Source: Eubacteriaceae bacterium
Lineage (GTDB): Bacteria > Bacillota > Clostridia > Eubacteriales > Anaerofustaceae
DNA: 48,427 nucleotides
NCBI GenBank assembly: GCA_036833715.1
Contig: DAITPG010000001.1
Location: 1 to 48,427 of the forward strand
Direction: 5' to 3'
The notes beneath the pieces were generated by a model that saw only the letters and a list, made by a program, of their open reading frames with translations, did not search any database and was not told the origin of the DNA. Positions 3,287 through 48,427 of the stretch are shown piece by piece. Numbering within the stretch: position 1 is the first letter of the stretch; each line of letters begins with the position of its first letter. Made by a program: the position numbers and the translations under genes.

Positions 3287-4069
3287 TTATCGTTTTTTGC
3301 CCGAGATCAATAAATATTCTCCCAGAATAAGCGCAGCAATCGCAACGGAGGCGGCAACGATAACACCGGGGTACTGCTTATCGAATCCATTGACTGACAA
3401 ATGTTTGGCTAAAATGCCGATGATCGCCCACAGCACCACGGCACCGTACGCTTTGTCATGATATCTCAGCATTACAAGCAGTCCCACAGCGCAGCTGACG
3501 GCGATCATGATCACAGTCCAGGCCGCATCGCTCAGACCCCAGCCGTTCCAGCCGATATCGACCAGCAGCGCGGTAATATTGGCAATCAAAGCCACCGCGA
3601 TCCAACCGTAATAGATACTGAAAGGGAACTTTATGAAAAAAGATTGTTTTGCGGTAAAACATTCGTTGCTCAGACGCAGATAAATGACCGTGAGCGCGAT
3701 AAATAAAACGACCATGATGATCACCGAAATCCCGACATTAAAATTATGCCAGGCGATGATCCACATGGCATTGGCAAAAGAGGATAAAATGAAATACGGG
3801 CTGATCTCTTCGATGATGTCGCTGATGCGCTGATCTTCGCCCGCTCCGAAAAAGCCCCATTGATACAGTACAAAAGCGCCCAGCAGCAGATAGATCAATC
3901 CCCAGATCATAAAAGTGAATCCCGCGGGCGTAAACAGGTTGGGATATGCGGCAGCTACTTCGCCTGTCGTTACGCCGTTAAGCGGCAGAAAGTCTGCCAA
4001 AAAGCTGAAGGTGATCATAACCAGATAAGCGGCGGTATTGATGATTTTTAAACCGGTTTTCTTTTTCAT
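3287..4069 (-). CDS. Polytopic membrane protein, TspO/MBR-related (tryptophan-rich sensory protein-like)
   Basis: 260 aa, about 7 TM segments and Trp-rich. The motif YPNLFTPAGFTFMIWGLIYLLL is recalled from TspO-related Firmicute proteins. Confidence 0.45.
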   Translation of the reverse strand: MKKKTGLKIINTAAYLVMITFSFLADFLPLNGVTTGEVAAAYPNLFTPAGFTFMIWGLIYLLLGAFVLYQWGFFGAGEDQRISDIIEEISPYFILSSFANAMWIIAWHNFNVGISVIIMVVLFIALTVIYLRLSNECFTAKQSFFIKFPFSIYYGWIAVALIANITALLVDIGWNGWGLSDAAWTVIMIAVSCAVGLLVMLRYHDKAYGAVVLWAIIGILAKHLSVNGFDKQYPGVIVAASVAIAALILGEYLLISGKKR

Positions 4070-10179: not shown

Positions 10180-10383
10180 ATGATGATACGTATAAATCTG
10201 GATGTAATGATGGCAAAAAGGAAGATCGGCCTTAATGAGCTTGCCGAAAAAGTGGGCATCACCAATGCCAATCTTTCAATACTTAAAAATAATAAAGCAA
10301 AAGCGATCCGATTTTCGACACTGGAAGCCATCTGCAAAGAGCTGGGCTGCCAGCCGGGAGATATCATCGAATTTCAGGATTAA
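10180..10383 (+). CDS. XRE-family HTH transcriptional regulator (YozG-like)
   Basis: 67 aa. LDVMMAKRKIGLNELAEKVGITNANLSILKNNKAKAIRFSTLEAICKELGCQPGDI is a classic Cro/C1 HTH. Confidence 0.85.
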   Translation: MMIRINLDVMMAKRKIGLNELAEKVGITNANLSILKNNKAKAIRFSTLEAICKELGCQPGDIIEFQD

Positions 10384-10425
10384 ACTCAAAATCAGGCAAC
10401 GCAATAAGCATCGAAGGAGTTTAGG

Positions 10426-10695
10426 ATGGCAACAAAAATACAGACTACTGCGCGCGGGGGCATCGTCCTAAAAAATGAGTATTACGAAAGCAATTCAGGC
10501 AATGTGGAATCCAACAGAGGAGCGGACTTATACGCGGTCTCGGACCAAACGATCATGCTGTACATGTATGACAACCGAACGAGTTTTTCTTATGAGTTGA
10601 ATGAGATCTGCTACGAAATCGAAGTCGATGCGCTGATTGAGCTCATCAAGCAAAACGGCAAGCTATCCGTGAAAAAAGAAAATAAAAATAAATAA
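10426..10695 (+). CDS. Hypothetical protein
   Basis: 89-aa ORF with GAAGGAG upstream. No motif recognised. Confidence 0.4.
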   Translation: MATKIQTTARGGIVLKNEYYESNSGNVESNRGADLYAVSDQTIMLYMYDNRTSFSYELNEICYEIEVDALIELIKQNGKLSVKKENKNK

Positions 10696-10912
10696 ATCGT
10701 TACCCTAATTTAAAAAGGAGATCAAGATTTTATGGCTGCCTGCCGTAGAGTGTTATTTTTTGCTGCCATTTTTTAAGAATTCTTTAAATATATGATTCAA
10801 AGCGCTTTTTTACTCTGACGGAATTTCTGTCGTTTATAAGTTCATCAAAGTAAACTACGACAATAAAAACGAGAAATCAGTTCATTTTAAAACTGTTTTT
10901 TGGAGGTAAAAT

Positions 10913-12490
10913 ATGGATAATTTATTTCAAAACAAAAAAAATATTGCTATTCTTTTTATCATCAGCACGGCTTTGGGCTTACTGTTTGACGCATTTTTTT
11001 ATGAATACGATCTGGGCGTCAATTATCTGATCTACTTGGTTGTTATGCTTGCGGGCACCTATTGGGCGCTCAGTTTCAGAAACGAATTTAACCGCGCGGT
11101 TTTTATGCTTTTTTCAGCCTGCATGCTGCTTTTGTCGGCAATCTACGTAACCAGCACCAACGAAGTGTTTCGCGCGCTCAATTTTCTTTTGATCCCTGCG
11201 CTTTACTTCGTCAGCATACTCGTTTCGCTCGGTTTGGTGCGCAATATGTTTGTCAATATGATCGTGTATGTTTTTACGCCGGTCGCGCATCTGAATAAAT
11301 ATTTTACTGCCGCCGTTTCTTTTGTAAGCAGTAAAGGCCGGCGTAAAGGCCACGGCGCCAAAATATTGCTGGGTCTTTTGATTTCGGCTGCGGCGCTGCT
11401 CATCATTCTGCCGCTGATGCTGGGCGCGGACAGTGCCTTTAAAGCCCTTTTTCATGATTTCTTTGACATCAAAATCAATTTTGATACCGTATTTAAAGTG
11501 ATCGCGTTTTTTATGGTTTCAACCTACGGCTTTGCGCTTATCTACTTCATATATCACGGTGCAAGAGTGCCGGCCGCGGCGGATTATCCCACAGCGCCGG
11601 TGCAGACGGATATCGTCGGTCAGGCGGCAGTCGAAATCAAAGACAACAATGCCTATGCGTATACACTTTTGACTTTTTTGATCGCAGTCGGTTTGGTGTT
11701 TTTGAGCTTTTCTTTCATACAGATTCTTTACCTATTCTTGAAAGTAAACGCGGGGCTTCCGCAGGATTTCACTTATGCATCCTATGCGCGGGAAGGGGTA
11801 TTCCAGCTGTGGGCGCTGACAGCCGTCAATATATTGATCGTGTTTGTCTGCGAAGCCATCAGCCGAAAGATCACTCTCATCAAAACAAATTTTTTCAATG
11901 TAATATTCTCGGTCTATGTGGGCATCAACTTTGCGATGACGGCTTCCGCTTTTTATAAAATGGCCATGTACGAAAGCGCTTTCGGGCTTACAAGACTGCG
12001 TATGTTTGTATTCTTGCATCTATCGGTGCAAACCGTTTTGCTTATACTGCTTCTTTACAAAATATGGGTAAAAAAATTCCCGTTTTTCAAAACGGCGTTT
12101 ATCCTTTGCCTTGCTTTTTATACAGCCGTCAATTTTATCAATGTCGATAAACTGATTGCGCAGCGTAACATCGCAGCTTATGAAAAAACCGGCGAAATCG
12201 ATATGCAATACCTCATTTATCATTTATCTTTCGACGCCTTCGGCGAGGTGGTCGCTTTTGCTGAGAAAGAATACGGATATGATCCTTCCAAGTTCTATCC
12301 CGCACCGCAGATGGAAACCTACGATTCGGAGATAGGCGGCACGGTCCGAAATCCCGAATTGACAGATGAAGAATTGTTATTGTATTATCTGTATTCACGG
12401 CAATGCGAATTGGAAAGCCGTTACAACAATAACCGCAGCTGGTTCGAATATAATATCAGTGCCGATCAAGCCATCAAATTCATAAAATAA
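10913..12490 (+). CDS. Large polytopic membrane protein (DUF4153/DUF4173-like)
   Basis: 525 aa, about 12 TM segments, and a soluble C-terminal tail. SD GGAGG upstream. Confidence 0.6.
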   Translation: MDNLFQNKKNIAILFIISTALGLLFDAFFYEYDLGVNYLIYLVVMLAGTYWALSFRNEFNRAVFMLFSACMLLLSAIYVTSTNEVFRALNFLLIPALYFVSILVSLGLVRNMFVNMIVYVFTPVAHLNKYFTAAVSFVSSKGRRKGHGAKILLGLLISAAALLIILPLMLGADSAFKALFHDFFDIKINFDTVFKVIAFFMVSTYGFALIYFIYHGARVPAAADYPTAPVQTDIVGQAAVEIKDNNAYAYTLLTFLIAVGLVFLSFSFIQILYLFLKVNAGLPQDFTYASYAREGVFQLWALTAVNILIVFVCEAISRKITLIKTNFFNVIFSVYVGINFAMTASAFYKMAMYESAFGLTRLRMFVFLHLSVQTVLLILLLYKIWVKKFPFFKTAFILCLAFYTAVNFINVDKLIAQRNIAAYEKTGEIDMQYLIYHLSFDAFGEVVAFAEKEYGYDPSKFYPAPQMETYDSEIGGTVRNPELTDEELLLYYLYSRQCELESRYNNNRSWFEYNISADQAIKFIK

Positions 12491-37632: not shown

Positions 37633-38337
37633 ATGAAATTAAAAAATCCCGTGCTGTTAAGACTGGCCGCATTTGTTCTTTTGCTGATACTCTCAGGTCT
37701 TGTCTTCATCGTCTCGGTGTACGGCGAAAACAGCCTGCCGACGGTGGCAGCCAACAATATCATAGTATTGATCGATCCCGGCCACGGCGGTCAGGATCCG
37801 GGAAAAGCGGGGCGCTTGAAGGACGAATCGGTTATCAATCTGTCCGTTTCGCTCAAGCTTTCCGAACTGCTTAAAAACAAAGGCTTTTATGTGGTGCTAA
37901 CAAGAAGTGACGAAAACGGCCTTTATGCGCAGGGAAGCACGGCATGGGACAAAGACGAGGATATGACAATCCGAAAAAACATGATCAAATCCAGCAACGC
38001 GTCGATTGCGATCAGCATCCACCAAAATTCCTATCCCGATTCCACCTGCCGCGGAGCTCAGATATTTTATTCGGATAATCTTGAAGCCAATGCCAAACTG
38101 GCGGATATCCTTCAGAAGCAGTTAAAGCCGGTTTCGCCTTTTGATAACAAACGCCAGCCGCAGATCAATAACAGTTTAAAGATGATCCGTGACAATGACA
38201 TCCCCTCCGCCATTGTGGAATGCGGCTTTTTAAGCAACAAGGAGGAAGAATATCTGCTGAATACGGACGAATACCAGCAAAAGTTGGCGCAGGCGGTTTA
38301 CGAAAGCATTTGCATCTTTTACGACATTGAGCCTTAA
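37633..38337 (+). CDS. cwlD: N-acetylmuramoyl-L-alanine amidase (Amidase_3; CwlD-like)
   Basis: 234 aa. N-terminal TM, then IDPGHGGQDPG, ISIHQNS and ECGFLSN motifs. Confidence 0.8.
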   Translation: MKLKNPVLLRLAAFVLLLILSGLVFIVSVYGENSLPTVAANNIIVLIDPGHGGQDPGKAGRLKDESVINLSVSLKLSELLKNKGFYVVLTRSDENGLYAQGSTAWDKDEDMTIRKNMIKSSNASIAISIHQNSYPDSTCRGAQIFYSDNLEANAKLADILQKQLKPVSPFDNKRQPQINNSLKMIRDNDIPSAIVECGFLSNKEEEYLLNTDEYQQKLAQAVYESICIFYDIEP

Positions 38338-38407
38338 AACAACATGCAAAAAGGCCGGGCGATAAAAATAAAAAAAATTCAACAAACACTATGCATTTAT
38401 CCTCAAC

Positions 38408-38418
38408 TGTGCTATACT
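38408..38418 (+). promoter_or_regulatory. Extended -10 promoter for the tRNA
   Basis: TGcTATACT ends 17 nt upstream of the tRNA 5' end. No good -35 element. Confidence 0.35.
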
Positions 38419-38434
38419 ATAGAACGCACCATGT

Positions 38435-38511
<77 letters not shown>

Positions 38512-38523
38512 TTTTATCGCATC

Positions 38524-38551
38524 ATAAGCCGATTTTACGGCTTATTTTTTT
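38524..38551 (+). terminator. Intrinsic terminator after the tRNA
   Basis: ATAAGCCG-ATTTTA-CGGCTTAT hairpin followed by T7. Confidence 0.7.
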
Positions 38552-38605
38552 ATCTTCAATCATAATTTAACCAATATTTAACTAATGAGTATTTTTGTTG
38601 AAAAC

Positions 38606-38845
38606 TTAATATTTACCCTCAACAAACCAGCGAGGATCTTCGAACCACAAATACGTTTTCTTCCCATTGACCATAATGGTATATCTTAATCCTATTCCAC
38701 CTGCGTCAATGCTGGCAGCACGCATGCTTTCAATGACCTTATCGATTTCAAAGATGCGGCCATCCTCCCATATGATTTTAAGTGGAGTAACGCTTCCATC
38801 TTCATTGAATTTAACATCTACACCGACAAATACTTTTCTTTTCAA
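38606..38845 (-). CDS. Small hypothetical protein (79 aa, TTG start)
   Basis: ORF only, with no convincing SD. The sequence PLKIIWEDGRIFEIDKVIESMRAASIDAGGIGLRYT...WFVE resembles a small conserved family seen in Clostridia mobile elements, by recollection only. Confidence 0.4.
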   Translation of the reverse strand: MKRKVFVGVDVKFNEDGSVTPLKIIWEDGRIFEIDKVIESMRAASIDAGGIGLRYTIMVNGKKTYLWFEDPRWFVEGKY

Positions 38846-38876
38846 TTTAATCTAAATAATCTTCTCAAATATGTAT

Positions 38877-39407
38877 TTATTTATATAAATTAACTAAAAG
38901 TGTTTCTAATCCATTAGAAACTTTTGTTACATAGTTTAAGAGTTCTTGGGTAGAATTTTTCAGGTGGTCAATTTCTGAAATATGATTACTTATTGAATCC
39001 CAATATGAGTCAAATTCTTCACTTATGTATTTGATTTGATCTGAAATGAAAAATTCTTTTTCATATATTTTTAATAAAGATATTCTGTTTTTGATTGATC
39101 TTTGTGTAATTCGAATATGATTTACATCATCCTCACTTTCGATAATATACATTTTTGAATCAGATACCGAAAGAATAATTTTATCTATTATTTTTTCCAG
39201 AATCGCCTTTTTGCGTATAGTATCATTTTTATTTTGTGTTAAAAAATATGCAAAAATTAATGCAATAAGTATATTTATTCCAGCATAAAGTGGGATTGTA
39301 AAATAGTCAGCTAATAATTTATTACCATTAGATTGAAAAGCGGAATAAATCAGTAATCCGATTGGAATCAATACTGTTAGATAAATCCATTTAAATTTAG
39401 GTTTCAT
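38877..39407 (-). CDS. Two-TM membrane protein with a helical cytoplasmic tail (third gene of the accessory cassette)
   Basis: 176 aa. Hydrophobic helices at about residues 7-24 and 37-57, then a charged Ile/Lys/Glu-rich helical region. Starts 12 nt after the stop of the STAS-like gene. Confidence 0.6.
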   Translation of the reverse strand: MKPKFKWIYLTVLIPIGLLIYSAFQSNGNKLLADYFTIPLYAGINILIALIFAYFLTQNKNDTIRKKAILEKIIDKIILSVSDSKMYIIESEDDVNHIRITQRSIKNRISLLKIYEKEFFISDQIKYISEEFDSYWDSISNHISEIDHLKNSTQELLNYVTKVSNGLETLLVNLYK

Positions 39408-39419
39408 AACTACTCCCTA

Positions 39420-39734
39420 CTACGCTTTCTTAACGCATTTTTCGATAAATTCTAATAAACTTGGTTCATCGTTAGATATAATAATCATATTATCTAGAAT
39501 ATTTTTATCTTTTAATTCACGTGCGAGTCCCCCGAAGCTTTCTTCAATAAAAGATGAAGGATATCCAAAACACCCATCTAAGTCGATTTTTAGCTTTTCA
39601 TGTTTTGTCAAAGCTTCTTGATATTTAGGCAATAAGTAATTTATCCTAAACTCTTCGCCAGAAAAAGGACCTTCATTAATCAATCTTCCACCAGGAAAGG
39701 CTGTAAAATCTTTTGCAATATTAATCTCAATCAT
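39420..39734 (-). CDS. STAS-like protein (DUF4325-type anti-sigma-antagonist fold)
   Basis: 104 aa. KLKIDLDGCFGYPSSFIEESFGGL matches my recollection of the DUF4325/STAS signature (..DF.gV...sSSF.dE.fg.L). The ATG overlaps the upstream gene by 8 nt. Confidence 0.7.
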   Translation of the reverse strand: MIEINIAKDFTAFPGGRLINEGPFSGEEFRINYLLPKYQEALTKHEKLKIDLDGCFGYPSSFIEESFGGLARELKDKNILDNMIIISNDEPSLLEFIEKCVKKA

Positions 39735-40830
39735 TTTCTTTTTCTCTCTCTTTCAGCATATACCAGCAAAATAGTGTCCCGAATATTTTATTTCTATAAT
39801 CTTTCAAATAAAAGTTTTCACTATTATCTATAAGCTTACAAATCCCCTTACCGGAAAAAACAATTAAATTTTTTAATAATCCATACTTGAAACATTCTAA
39901 TATTTGAGGTAAACCTTTTCCTCTATATTTTACACCAGTTTCCGTACGATCATCACCGTTTAAGGCAGATTTAATAAATTCAGAATCGTTTTTAAGAAAT
40001 ATCGGGATTTTTTCACCAAACCTTTTTCTTACTGTTGTTGGAATGCCTAGACCAGTATCCAAAAATATAAATTTAACCATTTCTTTAGTTTCTTCCGCAT
40101 AAATCAACCAAGAATTTGTAGTCATTATATTTTTACTGGAATATGCGTGTTGCTTTGTATTTTCCATTAGTTCAACAAGGATATTATATAATGGGATTGT
40201 GTCTTTTCTCTTAAATCCACATTTATTTTGTACAAATTCGCAAACCTGCGCGGCGATAGGTGAATCCACTGTTTCACCTTTAGCGATTTTTATTCGATTA
40301 GTTAATGGTTTGATGTTAAGGTTATCTTTTGAGTGAACAAACGACAAGAAGCCTGATTCGATATATACAGATTTTGCGCTTTCCTCATTTGGCAAATTGC
40401 CTTCAAACATATATCTAAAAACTTTATGGCTTTTAGTATCTGCAACAATTGAAACTAGGTATAAAATTGCATCGACAGTAACTTCAGTTACTGCACTGGA
40501 ATCGATATAAAATCTATGCCCGATTTTATATTCGTCTCTTTTTGTTATTATTTGATTGTAGAACTCAATAGTTTCATCCGGGTTATTCTCAATAGAAAAA
40601 TTTGATGGTGCGCGAAAAATGGAGCGATTCCTAATTTTTATTATAGCTTGAGAATTTTTATGTTTTTTAGTTTTCTTCTCTTTATTTTTGTTATTTTGTA
40701 GCTTACGACTTCTTTCGTCAAGCCATAATTTGCGCTCAAGTTTCCTTTGGATAAAATCACCCCTAAAACCAAATTTGACAAATATTATTAATAAATAACG
40801 ATAGCATATTATTAAAATTTTGTCAAACAT
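39727..40830 (-). CDS. GHKL (Bergerat-fold) ATPase or serine-kinase-like protein, SpoIIAB/RsbW-type
   Basis: 367 aa. N-box VELMENTKQHAY (nt 40141-40173, verified by back-translation), G1 FLDTGLGIP, G2 YRGKGLPQI. AAAGGAG SD 5 nt before the ATG at 40830. Confidence 0.75.
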   Translation of the reverse strand: MFDKILIICYRYLLIIFVKFGFRGDFIQRKLERKLWLDERSRKLQNNKNKEKKTKKHKNSQAIIKIRNRSIFRAPSNFSIENNPDETIEFYNQIITKRDEYKIGHRFYIDSSAVTEVTVDAILYLVSIVADTKSHKVFRYMFEGNLPNEESAKSVYIESGFLSFVHSKDNLNIKPLTNRIKIAKGETVDSPIAAQVCEFVQNKCGFKRKDTIPLYNILVELMENTKQHAYSSKNIMTTNSWLIYAEETKEMVKFIFLDTGLGIPTTVRKRFGEKIPIFLKNDSEFIKSALNGDDRTETGVKYRGKGLPQILECFKYGLLKNLIVFSGKGICKLIDNSENFYLKDYRNKIFGTLFCWYMLKEREKEND

Positions 40831-40902
40831 TGCAACTCCTTTTATAATCTAAGAATCAATATAAATGTTTAAATATATGAACGATAAGCAGTTCTTATTA
40901 AT

Positions 40903-40933
40903 AAAAAAAGACGGGGCTTAACCGCCCCGTCTT
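40903..40933 (-). terminator. Canonical intrinsic terminator after the phage holin
   Basis: The minus strand reads AAGACGGGGC-GGTTAA-GCCCCGTCTT followed by TTTTTAT, 12 nt after the holin stop codon. Confidence 0.75.
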
Positions 40934-40950
40934 CGTCATTATTAAAGTAA

Positions 40951-41391
40951 TTACCTTTGTTCGATATTGTTTTTGCTTCTCAATACCTCAATAGCTTTCT
41001 TGATCGCGCCGGGCAGCGGTACGCCCATAAGGCCGATATTTTCGATAATGCTGATTGCCTCATTGGCGATAAACGCGATGATCACGCTTGTCCGTATATA
41101 ATCAGCGCCCACGGCTATATCAAGCCTGTAGGCAACCAAGACAGCCAGCAGGATGCCGCATTTGCGGCATAGACCCTTTAATCCTGCTCTGGATTCCAAA
41201 GCTCCGCCGCAGCTCTTCGGGCTCTTCTTAAATACCCCCGCGAGGATCAATCCGGTTGCATAGTCAATGGCCATAAAAATCAGTAACGTTTGCAAGTCTG
41301 TTGTCCAACCCCCGAATAACCACGCGAGGAATCCGCCGATCGCGCCGAGGATGCCCAAAAGCGTTATTTTATTTACTGCGATCTGTTCCAA
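40951..41391 (-). CDS. Phage holin (toxin-secretion/phage-lysis holin family)
   Basis: 146 aa, about 4 TM segments. LLIFMAIDYATGLILAG is characteristic of the TIGR01593-type holin family. Confidence 0.8.
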   Translation of the reverse strand: MEQIAVNKITLLGILGAIGGFLAWLFGGWTTDLQTLLIFMAIDYATGLILAGVFKKSPKSCGGALESRAGLKGLCRKCGILLAVLVAYRLDIAVGADYIRTSVIIAFIANEAISIIENIGLMGVPLPGAIKKAIEVLRSKNNIEQR

Positions 41392-41402
41392 AGGCTTACC
41401 TC

Positions 41403-42275
41403 TTAAGCGTACAAAAATTCGTATTTCGTGATCGTAACGTCACCAATTTCTTGACCGGGATAAACATGGAGCCATTTCAGCGGGTCGACGCAATATTCTC
41501 GTCTTTCGGCATCGGTATCGTTATATTCCTGCCCCATCGGCGTGATGGCAATCCGGCAATGCAAATGCGGACCGTTAGAATCGCCGGTACTGCCCATAAG
41601 GCCAATTTTGCTTTTCATTCCGAGCGGATCGCCAACCTTGCAGTCCTGACGCGAAAGATGTTCATACATGATGTGCAGAGATTTTTTGTTTAAATGATCA
41701 TCGATGCGCTGCTGTACATATTTGCCGCGAATACGATCTTCCGTGACCTTTGTTATGACACCTTGGCCGACCGAAAGAATAGGCATATTCGGATCAGACC
41801 AATAGGCGAAATCTGTTCCGGTATGATCATCTTCATCAAAAGGCTCACTAATGGCGATGTAATCCACCGGCATTCTCAGTTTAAGCGGTTCAGGCTTGGG
41901 GGCGTCCGGATCGGTCACAGGTGCCGGCGCGCTTCCTGCGGCCGGGATCGTCAATTTCTGTCCGGCATAGACTAAATCGGGATCATCGCCGATTACGCCT
42001 TTGTTGGACGCATAGATATCCTTCCAAGTAACACCTTTGTATTTGGTGGCAATCTTCGTAAGATTATCGCCTTCCTGTACGGTATAAATATTACCCGCGG
42101 GCGCGTCCTCTTTGAACGTGCCGGGAATCATGACCGGATGGCCGACATCAAGCTTTCTTGCTTGGTCATATGAAATGTTGTTAAGATGCATAAGATCATC
42201 TAAATCGACATTATAGTCATCCGCGACATCGGTCAGCGTCTGGCCTTCTTTTAACTTGTGTATAGTGTATCCCAT
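41403..42275 (-). CDS. Endolysin: two LysM domains plus an M23 peptidase
   Basis: LysM-like YTIHKLKEGQTLTDVADDY...MIPG and YTVQEGDNLTKIATKY...LTIP. M23 motifs HTGTDFA and GSTGDSNGPHLH. Confidence 0.88.
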   Translation of the reverse strand: MGYTIHKLKEGQTLTDVADDYNVDLDDLMHLNNISYDQARKLDVGHPVMIPGTFKEDAPAGNIYTVQEGDNLTKIATKYKGVTWKDIYASNKGVIGDDPDLVYAGQKLTIPAAGSAPAPVTDPDAPKPEPLKLRMPVDYIAISEPFDEDDHTGTDFAYWSDPNMPILSVGQGVITKVTEDRIRGKYVQQRIDDHLNKKSLHIMYEHLSRQDCKVGDPLGMKSKIGLMGSTGDSNGPHLHCRIAITPMGQEYNDTDAERREYCVDPLKWLHVYPGQEIGDVTITKYEFLYA

Positions 42276-42709
42276 TATTCTTGTCCTCCGTTATTTGTAA
42301 TTTGTTTGGTTTCGGCAGCTGCCTCGTCCGTGATCTCATCGAAAGGCTCTTCGATGCTTTTTATGTATTTATTGTATGATTGGACCGTCTGTCCCCAAAA
42401 ACCGCCACTTCCCTCAAGCTTCTTATATAAGCCGGTCGATCCAAGATACAAAAATACAGCAAGCCATGCTGTGGCGAGCCAACTCAATGTGCTCATTGCA
42501 AAAGTCGCCTTAAAGCCAATAGCAAAAATGCAACTGAGGAAAAAACAGATGATCGAAATAAACCAGGTGTTTTCCTTACAGAATTTGAAAGCTTTCAGCC
42601 ATGCTTTCGTTGCTTCCGTCATGTACATGACGATTGCGCTTAAAATAGCGGCCAATAAAAAAAGCTGCATAAACAGCCCGACCTCGATTGAATAATTAAA
42701 ATCAATCAT
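42275..42709 (-). CDS. Three-TM phage membrane protein (holin-like)
   Basis: 144 aa, three hydrophobic helices and an acidic C-terminal tail. The stop overlaps the endolysin ATG (TAATG). Confidence 0.5.
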   Translation of the reverse strand: MIDFNYSIEVGLFMQLFLLAAILSAIVMYMTEATKAWLKAFKFCKENTWFISIICFFLSCIFAIGFKATFAMSTLSWLATAWLAVFLYLGSTGLYKKLEGSGGFWGQTVQSYNKYIKSIEEPFDEITDEAAAETKQITNNGGQE

Positions 42710-42766
42710 ATTTCACTCTCCTTTATTTTTTTGGTATTAAAAAAACGCCGATGGCGTCAATTTAAC

Positions 42767-43126
42767 TTATATGGATAGCTCCCTTATTCGCTCAACGGCT
42801 TGCTGTCGTTCTTCCTCAAGTCTTAAGTAATCTTCATCGCTCATCGAATAAGATATACCAAGAACCGTTTCGCGCATTCGTTGAATGGTTTTGTAATCGG
42901 TTCTTTCAAGAAACTCTTTTAGGCGATTTATTTCATCACGCTCTAAGAGCCTATTGATTTCCGCCTGCGGCTTGCCTTCTGTCCAGCTTGTCCCTGTCCA
43001 TTTCGGAAGATACAATCCATCCGGACACGGAATATCTATGCAATCTGTAGGAATTTCATCTTCATCGTAAAGAATTACATCTTCGACAAATAAGCCTTGC
43101 AGATTAATTTTAATTACTTTTTTCAT
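42767..43126 (-). CDS. Phage protein downstream of the tail fibre (XkdW-like or fibre-associated)
   Basis: 119 aa. Assigned from its position between the fibre and lysis genes. The motif LYLPKWTGTSWTEG is reminiscent of XkdW-type proteins. Confidence 0.4.
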   Translation of the reverse strand: MKKVIKINLQGLFVEDVILYDEDEIPTDCIDIPCPDGLYLPKWTGTSWTEGKPQAEINRLLERDEINRLKEFLERTDYKTIQRMRETVLGISYSMSDEDYLRLEEERQQAVERIRELSI

Positions 43127-43134
43127 TTCAACAC

Positions 43135-45759
43135 CTATACCGCTTTATGAATTATTCCTGAAAGACTGACATATGCATTATTGCCAGAAACGACAACTAC
43201 ATTGCCTGCGCTTGAAACTTGCATGTATGCGGCCGCGCCAGATGACCATCCAACAAATGCTTCTATTTTAGCTGGCCTATATCCAGATGCCTCAGTGAAA
43301 ATTGGAGTGCTGGCACCAATAGTTCCGTTCCTTACAAGTCCACGAAGATGAACAAAGCCTAATTCGTCTCGCATATAAGCTGCAGTTTCGAAGCTTCCGC
43401 CATAATTTTCCCATCCATTAAGCAATGTCGGTTCGATCCATGCTGTAGGCGGCGCAAGTATTCTTGTCCATGGAACAGTCCATGCATTGCCTGATCCAGA
43501 TTGCCTAATCCATATGCCGCTATAGAGACCGCTTCCAAATCTCCATGCTCTCTGAATAACGAAATCTGTGCTGTTATTATATCCGCCTAGAATTTCCACA
43601 TAATGTGCAGTGGATCCATCAGATAATCCGTCAATGGCCTCCATCACATAATAAAGACCCGGCGTAAGAGTGAAGTTTTCTAACTGGGCAGCTGTTACTT
43701 GTTTAGCTACGAATAGCTCTCGGCCGTAAACGTCATAATAGCCATCGCGACTTTGCACGCCTTTTTTGACGGTCGACATCATGCCAACGCCTAAATACGG
43801 TGACGGCGCGAGACCTGAAGGAAAATCGACACCCCAATCCATAAGCGGATCACCGATAAGCAATACGCTTACTTGATATGTCGTTAAGCGATCCCTTATC
43901 GTGACGCGAATGTTGTAGTTTTTTCCGGTATCAAATCCAAGGGATCCATTAGTATGGCCGGATATAGCTTTATCGATAATGCTTAGATTTCCTGATCCAT
44001 CGACCGACTTTGAAAGCGCGGTCGCGCCGGTTAACCATGTACCCGATGAAGTCAACTTATACTCGTAATAAAGCTCCTGTATAGAATTTGGTATACTACC
44101 GAAATTCAATAGATGCACTTTTGCGTTAATTGATAATGAAGTTTCAGCGTCAACCATGTTTGCGCGAGCGGCGACCACTTTCGATATGGAAATAGGAGTC
44201 AATACTTTATAATTCGCTGAAGATATTGTTTTCGATACGCTTACCGTGAATCCGCGGCTATCCGTAACAAGAATGGTTATTACGTTTCCATCAACATTAA
44301 GCAAATTAATGATCGTCGTTCCAGCGGTTACTGTGGACGTTTTTGTTCCGCAAGTTACTTTGTACGATACAATCGTTGCGCTGTTTTTTCCTGATGCCGG
44401 AGTGTTTATTGTAATGCGGATATCGGAATAATCTTTTATGATTATTTGATTGTTTTGAGTCAATGCAAATATCGCAGAATCAACATCAGCATAACTAAAA
44501 TTCGCCGCTGAAAAAGTTGGATCGCTGCTGCCTGCAGCGACGGTCGCAATTGCAGTTTTTGTGAGCGAAGGACCCAGTTGAGTCGATCCCGACATAACCT
44601 TAAGTGTCGCAGTAACGGTGACGGTTTTTAACGAGGGTATGGCGGCATATAGCAAGGTTGGATCAAGGGTAACCGCTTTATTCCCGGCTATAATGCCGGT
44701 CAATTCGCCGACGACCGTACCGCTCGGCACTTTGAAAGTGATAACTATTCCTAACCCTTGAGGGTTTGTTACGCTTACCGAAGTGCCCGAGCCTATAAAA
44801 AAGGCAAGAAACGAATCGAAAGACGCATTTAGGGTAGCTGTAGTTGAAGCTGTTTGAGTACTACCAAGTTTTGTCGAACCCGACCATGTTGTCATTTCTA
44901 CGCTTATTCCAAACGATGAAACATTTGCGTTTGATAAAGCCTGATACATTGTTGCAGGGCTTATTGTCGTGGTTACCTTGCCATTATATGTACTTTGAAT
45001 CGTCTTTACGGTTACGCCGTTAACCTTAAAGATTAACTTGACACTTACTCCATTAGGATTATTTACGTTGACAATTGTATCTTCGCCAATATTAAACCCC
45101 GGAAAACTCGTGATCGATTTCGTTAATGTAGCTGTAGCCGAAGCGGTGTCTGTACTTCCGATTTGAGTTGACCCCGACCATGTTGATAACTCAACCGCCA
45201 CCGGAACAGTGTTTAGCGCAGGGTTGGCAGCGGCACCGTAGAGTGTTGCAGGGCTAATCGTCGTATCGACAGCGCCGCTATATATGCCCGAAATTGTTTT
45301 GACTATAATACTATTCGTCTTGAAAACTAATTTCGTCGTAAGTCCGCCTGGATTACTTATATTTACCCTCACGTTCCCATTAACTGCGAACCCCGGAAAA
45401 CTCGTGATCGATGCGGCACGCGGAATATCTGTCAAATCTTCTGAGTCGCTCCAAGTTACGGTATAGTCACCGTTTCCGGCAAAGGTAGCGGAACAATTAA
45501 CAGTCTTTGAACCATCTGTATTATGTGTTACAGTTTTACTTTTCGTTATAAGCAGCTGTGAACCGGAAGATGATTGTCCCGTGTTGAAGTTTGCTGTAAA
45601 TGGATATTCGGTTCCATCTATTATTATTTTTCCGGATGGATTATCGTTCGCCCATGTACCCGCGTTCCAGTTTGCATACAATTTTACCGTAACATACGAG
45701 GTATTATTCGGTATATTTACATTGCTTTCTGTAATTTCGCCTGTTAACCATACTGACAT
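43135..45759 (-). CDS. Phage tail fibre or receptor-binding protein (DUF859-like N-terminus, triple repeat, C-terminal RBP-like domain)
   Basis: 874 aa, Ser/Thr/Gly/Asn-rich beta-type sequence, located after the Tal-like gene. The C-terminal motif LLNGWENYGG...AAYMRDELGFVHLRGLV is common in fibre tips. Confidence 0.75.
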   Translation of the reverse strand: MSVWLTGEITESNVNIPNNTSYVTVKLYANWNAGTWANDNPSGKIIIDGTEYPFTANFNTGQSSSGSQLLITKSKTVTHNTDGSKTVNCSATFAGNGDYTVTWSDSEDLTDIPRAASITSFPGFAVNGNVRVNISNPGGLTTKLVFKTNSIIVKTISGIYSGAVDTTISPATLYGAAANPALNTVPVAVELSTWSGSTQIGSTDTASATATLTKSITSFPGFNIGEDTIVNVNNPNGVSVKLIFKVNGVTVKTIQSTYNGKVTTTISPATMYQALSNANVSSFGISVEMTTWSGSTKLGSTQTASTTATLNASFDSFLAFFIGSGTSVSVTNPQGLGIVITFKVPSGTVVGELTGIIAGNKAVTLDPTLLYAAIPSLKTVTVTATLKVMSGSTQLGPSLTKTAIATVAAGSSDPTFSAANFSYADVDSAIFALTQNNQIIIKDYSDIRITINTPASGKNSATIVSYKVTCGTKTSTVTAGTTIINLLNVDGNVITILVTDSRGFTVSVSKTISSANYKVLTPISISKVVAARANMVDAETSLSINAKVHLLNFGSIPNSIQELYYEYKLTSSGTWLTGATALSKSVDGSGNLSIIDKAISGHTNGSLGFDTGKNYNIRVTIRDRLTTYQVSVLLIGDPLMDWGVDFPSGLAPSPYLGVGMMSTVKKGVQSRDGYYDVYGRELFVAKQVTAAQLENFTLTPGLYYVMEAIDGLSDGSTAHYVEILGGYNNSTDFVIQRAWRFGSGLYSGIWIRQSGSGNAWTVPWTRILAPPTAWIEPTLLNGWENYGGSFETAAYMRDELGFVHLRGLVRNGTIGASTPIFTEASGYRPAKIEAFVGWSSGAAAYMQVSSAGNVVVVSGNNAYVSLSGIIHKAV
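44527..45408 (-). repeat. Three tandem 98-aa (294-nt) divergent repeats inside the tail fibre gene
   Basis: Residues 118-215, 216-313 and 314-411 each begin (I/F)(T/D)SF(P/L)(G/A)F. Each contains NP.G, (K/I)L(V/I)FK, TISPATLY-like, and WSGST(Q/K)(I/L)GS blocks. Confidence 0.7.
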
Positions 45760-47426
45760 CAGCTCACCCCCTCATCGACGGTTACCATAATTCCTCTCGT
45801 GGTACCTCGCGTATATGCTGTAAATTTTGCATTGCCGAGATACATTTGTTTTTCGATAATGGCCGTAGGCATTAAAGCGCCGTCCTTTGTAAATTTTGCG
45901 ATAATCTCACTAGTAAGGGCGTTTTTGATTTCCCATGCACCCGATCCCAATCTTGTAACCAACCCCGAAGTACTGTCAGTCAGGGTCAGACCGGCTTCTG
46001 AGATGATGGAGCCTGTTTCTAAATCAAGAACAAAATAGCCGTTCAAAGAAGATAGTAACCCTGCACGAATAAACTGCGCATTAATCGCGCCATCCATTGT
46101 CATAGCCACAATATATTCTCGTGCCGGATTATCGGCGCCGATTACGTTATCGCTAAAACCAAGACCGCCAAGATTCCATCGCCAAATTTTTCTAGCAGCA
46201 GTAGGATCCTTATCATCCATGATAAGAATTTCATTCGTGCCTTCGTTTTCGCGAATAAGTACATGTCCGCCGAGCGCGTTTTTAATTAGGTCAGTAGACG
46301 CACCCAGCGACTTGGCTACGGCAAGCACATTCCCGACTGCGGCTTTAATGGCGGATACTGCCTTATTTTCTTGCGACTTTACATTTCGGGAGGCCTTACC
46401 AGCACCCTCAATTGTATGATCACCGCGATAATGCCATGTTGATGTAGTGATAAGCGCGTCCACATCGCCTACATCGGCGATGTCAGTGAGAGTAACATAA
46501 TCTCCCGCCTGCAGCGACGGATCGCCAATAAAATCGCAACTAAAAGGTTTATATTGAACTTCTGAAATCTGCGTAAGTAAATTTGATAAAATTACATCAA
46601 TATCATTTCCAACCGGCAGTAATGGATTTTCTTCAAGCGCCAGAATCAGATCGTCGGAACCCTGCATATAGTCAGTTTCGCCATTTTTAATGGTTATGCC
46701 GGTGATCTGCAGATTGAAATCTGATACTTTACTTTGAAATCTCTCATCAATGCTAATATTTTTTACGCTCGTTGCAATTTTTACGGGAATAATTTCTAAA
46801 TTGCCGCTGCGATTCATACGGGCAAAACAACCCATGATCTGACAAGCCCACATGAGCATATCTCTGCATGTTTTTATCTGATCGTTCGACTCAGGCAATG
46901 CAAGCATTAAATCATAATTTGGGAAACTTTCAAACTGTCCGGCGCTCGTCGATAGCAATACTCCAGCCTTCGCGCAGCAGGATAAAATAATCGTCCGGGG
47001 CGTGCCCGAAGTGCTGACGCCCGAAATATCAACATCAAATAAAATCAATCCATCGAGAGCTTTTAGTGTAACAGCCGAAAGCTCCCTTTCTATTTCGGGC
47101 GTAACATAATATATACCGAAAGGAACGTATTCCCATGAATCAGAACCCGTCATAAGCCCGTAGTTAAGATTTATCCGGGCACCGTCGAGTGCGTAAGGAT
47201 TCTGATAGCTCATGAGAGTCAAACCCATTTCAGAGGCAATTACGCCGCCAACGTCTAAGCTATCGCCCGATACGCATTGTTCAGAAAAATAGAGTGAACC
47301 GCCTTCAATATGTTCATCCGTTATATTGATTGTCGTATCGTCTTTTAGCGTGATCGTGCCAACGATTTTGTCTAAAACGGTTTCGGCAGATATGGCATCT
47401 TTGTAGCTTTGTGATACCGGATACAT
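45759..47426 (-). CDS. Phage tail protein (Tal/baseplate-hub-like, Gp37-type)
   Basis: 555 aa. Sits after the Dit-like gene and before the fibre. The N-terminus SQSYKDAISAE...GTITLKDDTTINITDEHIEGGSL is typical of siphovirus tail endopeptidase/hub proteins. Confidence 0.65.
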   Translation of the reverse strand: MYPVSQSYKDAISAETVLDKIVGTITLKDDTTINITDEHIEGGSLYFSEQCVSGDSLDVGGVIASEMGLTLMSYQNPYALDGARINLNYGLMTGSDSWEYVPFGIYYVTPEIERELSAVTLKALDGLILFDVDISGVSTSGTPRTIILSCCAKAGVLLSTSAGQFESFPNYDLMLALPESNDQIKTCRDMLMWACQIMGCFARMNRSGNLEIIPVKIATSVKNISIDERFQSKVSDFNLQITGITIKNGETDYMQGSDDLILALEENPLLPVGNDIDVILSNLLTQISEVQYKPFSCDFIGDPSLQAGDYVTLTDIADVGDVDALITTSTWHYRGDHTIEGAGKASRNVKSQENKAVSAIKAAVGNVLAVAKSLGASTDLIKNALGGHVLIRENEGTNEILIMDDKDPTAARKIWRWNLGGLGFSDNVIGADNPAREYIVAMTMDGAINAQFIRAGLLSSLNGYFVLDLETGSIISEAGLTLTDSTSGLVTRLGSGAWEIKNALTSEIIAKFTKDGALMPTAIIEKQMYLGNAKFTAYTRGTTRGIMVTVDEGVS

Positions 47427-47435
47427 AACAGCTCC

Positions 47436-47801
47436 TTAATACTGTGTGAGTACAAAAGAAAGACTCCAACTGCTTTCAGTGGAGTCCTTGTCCTTTCGTC
47501 TGTTCAACTTAGCTTCTCGGTCCCCCGCATACATAGTTATAGTGGGATCTTCTGATGTCGTTGGATCAAAAAATGTTACCGTAATTTTTGCGGGTTTTAT
47601 CGCATCGGTTATTGATTTTAGCTGAGATTTAGTCAAATTATCCCATCCTATTGAAATGGAATATACATCAGCTCGCACTCTGGAACGATTAAGAAAACCC
47701 GCTTCAGTTCGTTTTGTTTTGTCGCTGTCCATATCTCGTGAAGTTACGCCATAGTCTGTGGGTTCGATTAGATCGACACCATTTATATTTATGGTAGCCA
47801 T
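47436..47801 (-). CDS. Phage distal-tail-protein-like protein
   Basis: 121 aa, immediately after the tape measure gene. Assigned on position. Confidence 0.4.
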   Translation of the reverse strand: MATININGVDLIEPTDYGVTSRDMDSDKTKRTEAGFLNRSRVRADVYSISIGWDNLTKSQLKSITDAIKPAKITVTFFDPTTSEDPTITMYAGDREAKLNRRKDKDSTESSWSLSFVLTQY

Positions 47802-47804
47802 AGC

Positions 47805-48427
47805 TTACCTCCCGTTGGTGCGCAGGTTGCGCCTTTTTGATCGACGCTCAATAGCCGCACTTATTCTTTCACTGTCTAAATAAACATAGATGTCTCCTCC
47901 TGAATTACCGGCCCCCGCAACAACTGCCGATACTCGTCCGGCAATTTTATCTGCAAGCACATCCATCCAGCCTGTATGATTTTCTAGGGGAAGAACAGCC
48001 TCACGGCCGCGTTCACCAATTTGCGCAACCGTGGGAGCATCAACTATGCCTCCGCGAGCCATGCGAGGAATTGAGACGGTGCCGATGGTGCTTATATAAC
48101 CGAGACTTACGCCTAAAATAGGTATGTTATTTATTTTGTCAATAATGTTATTTATTCCGCGGATAAAAGCATTGATAATGCCGATAAATCCGTTAATAAC
48201 ACCCTCGACAATTCCAACAACAGAATTGTACATCCACTTAAAAGCATTGACGATAGGATCGATTACATAGGTTCTTATGTATCCGGCAAGCGTTGAAGCT
48301 CCGGTTTGTATGCCTCTCCATAGTCCTCCAAAAAAGTCTTTTATTGGAGTTACGACTTTGTTATTGAACCATTTAGCTGAGTTTAAAAAGACATTTTTCA
48401 AACCATTCCAAAGGTTCGTTGCCCCGG
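47805..48427 (-). CDS. Tape measure protein, C-terminal part (open to the window edge)
   Basis: The reading frame has no stop between 48401 and 48427. It has a Gly/Ile-rich helical region and the C-terminal motif GGIVDAPTVAQIGERGREAVLPLE common in TMPs. Confidence 0.65.
   Translation of the reverse strand, partial: GATNLWNGLKNVFLNSAKWFNNKVVTPIKDFFGGLWRGIQTGASTLAGYIRTYVIDPIVNAFKWMYNSVVGIVEGVINGFIGIINAFIRGINNIIDKINNIPILGVSLGYISTIGTVSIPRMARGGIVDAPTVAQIGERGREAVLPLENHTGWMDVLADKIAGRVSAVVAGAGNSGGDIYVYLDSERISAAIERRSKRRNLRTNGR

Follow-up and report, generated by a model that had tools for sequence, protein, structure and literature searches.

A three-gene kinase, DUF4325 and membrane-protein cassette in an AT-rich prophage island is a probable VapKSC-like defence module

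The closest described relative of the three-gene cassette analyzed here is VapKSC, in which the kinase VapK phosphorylates VapS at Ser48, freeing the PIN toxin VapC (Chambers, Rani, Min, Villa, and Corbett, EMBO J 2026; PMC13373217). The vapKSC operon protects Escherichia coli about 100-fold against phage Bas42, VapSC behaves as a toxin-antitoxin pair, the trigger of VapK is single-stranded DNA (ssDNA), and 36% of vapKSC loci lie near other defence systems (PMC13373217). CapK and CapS, relatives of VapK and VapS, are pure regulators, and CapS carries a helix-turn-helix (HTH) extension (PMC13373217). One clade of VapC, PIN.4, is coupled to genes for DUF4325 proteins (PMC5499597). Our cassette lies in an AT-rich island at positions 38512-40950 of a 48,427-nt stretch of DNA, here called the window, which is the whole of contig C1 in a 2.59-Mb, 370-contig, 84%-complete assembly of a Eubacteriaceae bacterium. 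It encodes, on the minus strand and in this order, a GHKL-type kinase (gene A), a small DUF4325 protein (gene B), and a protein with transmembrane (TM) helices (gene C), a layout that we abbreviate as K-S-TM. We consider that the island is probably prophage cargo carrying a K-S-TM defence cassette that resembles VapKSC.

Cassettes of this kind have been listed before. In supplementary tables, Rousset et al. (2022) list cargo annotated as “HATPase_c / DUF4325” and as “hypothetical + hypothetical + DUF4325” in the P2/P4 hotspots of E. coli (PMC9122126). An N-terminus printed in those tables is collinear with our gene A profile (E value of 2e-4), and the cassette type is therefore already catalogued. 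The same layout of a hypothetical protein, a DUF4325 protein, and a TM protein is present in a Francisella temperate phage (PMC7924643). Unlike the cargo of the Rousset hotspots, the cassette described here belongs to another phage lineage, in the metagenome-assembled genome of a gut bacterium of Gram-positive type. CapKS/VapKSC (PMC13373217) was the one relevant system in the searchable literature, where we found no functional study of HATPase_c/DUF4325 cargo.

The 367-residue product of gene A (39727..40830, minus strand) carries an N-terminal basic helix, then an alpha/beta domain (residues ~69-185) that may be STAS-like, and last a GHKL serine-kinase domain of the SpoIIAB/RsbW type (residues ~190-360). 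It has no Pfam match and matches phrog_3364 at 1e-38. An alignment of 55 homologues shows invariant residues E220 and N224 in the N box, D258xGxG in the G1 box, and R303-G304-x-G306 in the G2 box, which by their sequence are the boxes of a Bergerat (GHKL) ATP-binding fold. We modeled the protein with AF2 from the alignment (pLDDT 86.8; a single-sequence run reached a pLDDT of 40 and was not used). A Foldseek search with this model matched the C-terminal half to SpoIIAB with a TM score of 0.67-0.71 and a probability of 1.0, and also to RsbW and SiaB. The VapK and VapS sequences were taken from Appendix Table S2 of PMC13373217, and hhalign of the gene A profile against VapK gave a probability of 74% and an E value of 2.7e-5 over the kinase domain. 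Sequence searches of the PDB with the gene A and gene B profiles returned nothing meaningful and did not reach the VapS-VapC entry, 9Z7O. At the N-terminus, residues 5-22 form a hydrophobic first helix that is missing from most homologues; the helix after it is rich in Lys and Arg (“KxKxW”), is conserved across the family, and could bind nucleic acid.

Gene B (39420..39734, minus strand), which gene A overlaps by 8 nt, encodes a 104-residue STAS-like protein of the DUF4325 family (PF14213, E value of 1.4e-9). VapS matches the same Pfam family at 2.7e-17, in agreement with the coupling of PIN.4 VapC genes to DUF4325 genes. Residues D53, G57, S61, F67, and G68 of gene B are invariant in 24/24 distinct homologues, and a weak profile alignment with VapS places VapS Ser48 within one residue of gene B Ser60/Ser61. 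We presume that Ser61, within a GYPSSF motif, is the phospho-acceptor. Gene C (38877..39407, minus strand) starts 12 nt after gene B and encodes 176 residues that, according to the alignment, form two TM helices at the N-terminus, followed by a helical cytoplasmic domain. It matched no family in Pfam, PHROG, NCBIfam, or PADLOC. In most loci, a hidden Markov model of gene C locates it after gene B; in divergent loci this position is still taken by a protein with one or two TM helices. Gene C is the presumed effector of the cassette.

The cassette shares several features with VapKSC. Both are three-gene operons ordered as kinase, small STAS protein, and effector, both have a GHKL kinase with intact ATP-binding motifs, and both place a small DUF4325 protein with an invariant serine directly after the kinase gene. 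Like vapKSC, the trio is also found near other defence systems. The differences lie mainly in the third gene, which encodes a two-TM helical protein with no PIN match, whereas VapC is a PIN nuclease. Furthermore, gene A carries its extra basic N-terminal helix, and genes A and B are only remotely similar in sequence to VapK and VapS. With a membrane protein in place of the PIN nuclease, we did not file the cassette as VapKSC and regard it as a variant of that kinase/STAS switch with a membrane effector. Low-scoring PADLOC matches (Specificity_I at 1.6e-4 on a Lys-rich linker and PDC-M09A at 0.06) were rejected as spurious or low-complexity.

By analogy with VapKSC, gene B would be bound to the cytoplasmic domain of gene C in the lysogen and would keep it inactive. 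Infection by another phage would switch on kinase A, for example through ssDNA or another cue, after which A would phosphorylate B at the invariant Ser61 and B would release C. The freed C would then damage or depolarize the membrane, and the infection would be aborted. The most likely function of the cassette would be that of a kinase-gated, membrane-acting abortive-infection or superinfection-exclusion module. The specific phospho-release mechanism is offered tentatively, with the balance leaning somewhat against so detailed a scheme.

We then examined where the trio occurs. We used 86 word-indexed homologues of gene A together with an exhaustive profile search counted as clusters at 50% identity, which returned 1538 clusters with E≤1e-30 and 3516 with E≤1e-10. 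A sample of 400 genomes from the phylum held no family member (0/400), so the family is sporadic and accessory. A tblastn search with gene A against 50,697 phage records gave no match. There were 32 distinct loci, and gene order was scored in the 23 of these with at least 1 kb downstream of gene A. Gene A is followed by gene B and then by a protein with one or two TM helices in 22/23 loci, and the exception has a truncated gene A. An IMG/VR phage locus (L025:5965-6852) with a truncated kinase gene and no B or C downstream is a decayed copy of the cassette.

The trio occupies a range of genomic contexts. It follows a holin or endolysin and adjoins an att site or the chromosome at L002, where PDC-S47/Abi_alpha comes next, and at L032, where it lies between a GH25 lysin and an integrase. 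At L001, L026, L033, L034, L039, and L040 it is bordered by the terminase on one side and by a late regulator or early genes on the other. It adjoins a serine recombinase at L048 and lies in an element resembling an integrative and conjugative element (ICE) at L017. The trio also lies beside PDC-M03 and a type III restriction-modification system at L014, and in a defence island between RADAR (RdrA/RdrB) and HEC-02 at L010. On this last gut metagenome contig (L010:2743-7761 and 10244-11778), PADLOC models identified a RADAR-like pair, RdrA at 1e-14 and RdrB at 2e-26, and the HEC-02 pair at 1e-133 and 9e-52, after which comes a type IV restriction enzyme. The closest homologue of gene A, at 55% identity, occupies a different slot of a different phage. 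The trio is very probably mobile accessory cargo.

These contexts bear on an alternative that we consider unlikely, namely that the trio is a partner-switching regulator of lysis timing, lysogeny maintenance, or envelope stress, with gene C as a sensor or anchor in the membrane and not a toxin. In structure, the kinase/STAS pair is of the SpoIIAB/SpoIIAA type; gene A has the kinase fold of the SpoIIAB-SpoIIAA and RsbW-RsbV systems, and gene B has their conserved serine in a D..G..S.....GG.L motif. The cassette adjoins the holin in the window and at L002 and L032, and CapK/CapS show that relatives of VapK/VapS can be purely regulatory. However, the kinase of the trio carries a weakly STAS-like domain of its own in the same protein, and the trio as a whole is mobile and AT-rich; both traits set it apart from SpoIIAB-SpoIIAA and RsbW-RsbV. 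No sigma factor or PP2C phosphatase was found in the cassette, among its neighbours in the window, or in seven other contexts, and neither the cassette nor its surroundings hold a DNA-binding domain. Gene B also lacks an HTH extension, unlike CapS. Furthermore, the trio moves as a unit into contexts free of lysis genes, such as defence islands, the ICE-like element, and the terminase junction.

We regard as less likely still an addiction-type, or toxin-antitoxin, role, in which the trio would stabilize its mobile element with no phage defence and the kinase would tune the turnover of the antitoxin. Its presence on prophages, an ICE-like element, and islands would suit such a role, as would the toxin-antitoxin-like layout of a small protein and a possible membrane toxin and the behaviour of VapSC as a toxin-antitoxin pair. 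Yet the trio is embedded among known defence systems, and VapKSC itself protects against a phage. Intact kinase motifs are kept across thousands of clusters, which argues for signal-dependent activation. A defence role for the trio remains the reading that we hold to be probable.

The boundaries of the prophage could be located on both sides. A tRNA-Arg(ACG) gene (38435..38511, plus strand) was identified by ARAGORN and by Rfam at 61.8 bits, and its 3′ half (38474-38512) is the attL core. This 39-bp core has a 100% identical copy at positions 3832-3870 of another contig, C77, which is its sole other occurrence in the genome. Upstream of the C77 copy, at a distance of 137 nt, is a tyrosine integrase gene, itself preceded by genes for a LexA/cI-type repressor and a cro-like protein, and chromosomal genes including mfd lie beyond this copy, which is attR. 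Therefore, the island sits inside a prophage integrated at tRNA-Arg. The order of the prophage is attL at the tRNA, cargo, lysis genes, tail and further modules, integrase, and attR. Its last backbone genes before the cargo, both assigned with Pfam, are an endolysin with LysM-LysM-M23 domains (41403-42275, minus strand) and a holin (Phage_holin_4_1; 40951-41391, minus strand). An earlier note on this DNA had placed the cassette at a phage genome end, and the att duplicate with its integrase shows that it indeed lies between the lysis genes and attL.

Two further observations concern these arms. An 11-bp motif, TTTAACCAATA, is present in both, at 38566-38576 (~55 nt inside attL) and at C77:3707-3717 (~115 nt inside attR), and is a candidate arm-type binding site of the integrase. 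Just outside attR, C77:4077-4742 encodes a 221-residue multi-TM protein at 26% G+C, which forms a second small AT-rich island before the chromosomal genes.

We computed a 300-bp sliding profile across the region and ranked the island against 3594 windows of 2.3 kb from the genome. The profile runs at 0.23-0.33 G+C across 38800-40900. It steps abruptly at the right edge, to 0.467 at 40900-41199 and 0.53 at 41050-41349, and rises more softly on the left, at 0.37-0.45 over 38200-38800, through the tRNA and a 39% G+C open reading frame (ORF79, described below). The island as a whole (38512-40950) has 29.7% G+C, and positions 38846-40902 have 0.285, compared with 45.9% in the chromosome to its left (1-38434), 44.0% in the phage late genes (40951-48427), and 44.6% in the whole genome. 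It ranks fifth-lowest among the genome windows (mean 0.446, standard deviation 0.043; z of about -3.4). G+C at third codon positions (GC3) is 0.25 in gene A, 0.24 in gene B, and 0.16 in gene C, versus 0.59 in the holin, 0.50 in the endolysin, and 0.59 in the chromosomal cwlD gene, so the island is low in both measures relative to its neighbours. The earlier note had proposed a sharp compositional island from hand counts of sample lines. The computed profile confirms the island and the step at ~40.9 kb, while the left edge proved more gradual; the single-line counts for cwlD (57%) and the endolysin (53%) run somewhat higher than the averages over these genes (47.1% and 47.7%). Elsewhere in the genome, the lowest-G+C windows of this size (28-31%) lie at C11:13000-18000, C234:1-2800, and C55:6500-9300, which are possibly more horizontally acquired cargo.

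Composition alone would also fit an explanation slightly less probable than the addiction-type role, that the low G+C is native to this end of the phage and the cassette is an old resident with no separate acquisition. On C77, G+C is 31-40% in the integrase gene and the lysogeny module, so a low value by itself is not peculiar to the cassette, and ORF79, at 39%, falls in between. A search through the endolysin in IMG/VR and in 25 genomes of the family gave distant LysM or M23 matches alone and no sister prophage with an empty slot. An empty-site comparison with three genomes of the same genus found the tRNA alone conserved, with flanks that are not syntenic. Against this explanation, the trio has 29% G+C and GC3 values of 0.16-0.25, well under even the lysogeny module. 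Moreover, its G+C falls below that of its flanks in 27/27 distinct loci, by 2-17 points and with the largest gap in the window, and these loci include unrelated phages and non-phage contexts; the slot held by the closest gene A homologue also speaks for movement. The separate acquisition suggested in the earlier note is thus upheld by the same trio recurring, always below flank G+C, in unrelated phages at other junctions, in an ICE-like element, and in defence islands. It is very improbable, and can be ruled out, that the island is a satellite or a small integrative element distinct from the prophage and inserted in tandem at this tRNA, even though it abuts the tRNA and differs sharply in composition from the late genes, as no second att core is present in the window even with three mismatches allowed, no direct or inverted repeats beyond chance AT-rich matches bound the island, no integrase or replication gene lies within it, and the sole other att copy is the one beside the phage integrase on C77.

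The late lysis transcript ends in an intrinsic terminator (40901..40934, minus strand) with an 11-bp G+C-rich stem (40934-40907) followed by U7. Its predicted free energy is -24.2 kcal/mol (z of -5.3), and 0/200 shuffled sequences folded equally well. The earlier note was right about this terminator and misjudged its distance, which is 16 nt past the holin stop codon (TAA, 40953-40951) instead of 12 nt. The AT-rich leader that it described is also present, extending for ~70 nt (40831..40902, minus strand) to the gene A start codon (ATG, 40830), with a ribosome-binding site, AGGAG, 7 nt ahead of it. Clear promoters of the extended -10 type lie immediately upstream of many homologous cassettes, in some cases preceded by a terminator as in the window. 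The cassette may be transcribed autonomously, with the holin terminator insulating it from the late operon.

On the other side of the cassette, a hairpin followed by U7 (38524..38545, plus strand; free energy of -10.3, z of -4.3) forms an intrinsic terminator for the tRNA transcript. Its U-run is on the plus strand only, so it can end the tRNA transcript and not that of the cassette. The hairpin lies to the right of the att core and is thus phage-derived DNA, not the original chromosomal terminator of the tRNA, which corrects its description as the tRNA's own. No hairpin with a U-tract was found on the minus strand after gene C or ORF79, and the cassette therefore lacks an intrinsic terminator of its own. 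An Rfam scan of the window returned the tRNA alone, with a match to STnc430 under threshold.

The moron is a concept of Juhala and Hendrix. Our data support such an assignment for the island, as accessory cargo placed between the lysis genes and attL of a temperate phage that has integrated at tRNA-Arg. Like morons and the cargo of prophage defence hotspots, it is extra DNA of deviant composition, insulated by a terminator, at a module junction of a temperate phage. Composition, position inside the att boundaries, and independent mobility all agree with the moron architecture proposed earlier, whereas the downstream terminator is missing and the promoter candidate is weak.

Several points weigh against the defence reading or parts of it. 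Gene C has no recognizable family, and its toxicity is assumed. No model in PADLOC-DB v2.0.0 matched any protein of the trio. Outside Pfam, the profile match between gene B and VapS is weak (E value of 0.06). VapK consists of a STAS and a GHKL part, whereas the corresponding alpha/beta domain in the gene A model (residues 69-185) is weakly like RsbV and a viral DUF4325 protein, with Foldseek TM scores of 0.45-0.48, and this N-terminal domain has no profile similarity to gene B and no sequence signal for STAS. The promoter candidate in the leader, TTATCG-18-TATATT, is a weak match that is no better than chance in such AT-rich DNA. Weighing these against the intact kinase motifs, the invariant serine, the conserved gene order, and the neighbouring defence systems, we still consider a defence function for the trio probable. 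A broader proposal is close to evenly balanced, falling a little short of that: K-S-TM may be a distinct and widespread phosphorylation-gated abortive-infection system, which would add a new class of effector to the CapK/VapK signalling module and which phages of E. coli and of gut bacteria of Gram-positive type would carry as AT-rich cargo.

A fourth gene lies within the island. ORF79 (38606..38845, minus strand) encodes a small conserved phage-associated protein of 79 residues, with 11 homologues and matches in 14 records of gut Clostridia phages. We rejected it as a fourth cassette gene, as it is never beside the trio at other loci and has a polymerase-linked context of its own. Members of its family (including P0088, a homologue with 64% identity) lie directly downstream of a gene for a Y-family (IMS/DinB-like) DNA polymerase on four metagenome contigs (L066-L069), and relatives are also found near genes annotated as “DNA polymerase” in gut Clostridia phages. 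In the window, ORF79 may be an orphaned polymerase accessory factor. The operon of the island consists of the tightly coupled genes A, B, and C, and ORF79 is unrelated and separate.

Taken by itself, the compositional finding is an ordinary case of prophage cargo, with AT-rich DNA as the mark of horizontally mobile defence-type genes. The lower G+C of the trio relative to its flanks in every locus compared suggests a simple way of finding such cargo. If the trio does protect lysogens, the kinase/STAS switch of VapKSC and CapKS would be a modular trigger that can be coupled to a membrane effector, a nuclease, or a repressor. The membrane version would then be common, with about 1500 clusters (50% identity) spread over distant phyla in phages, defence islands, and an ICE-like element, and it would offer a tractable three-gene system for studying how a bacterial serine kinase senses infection.

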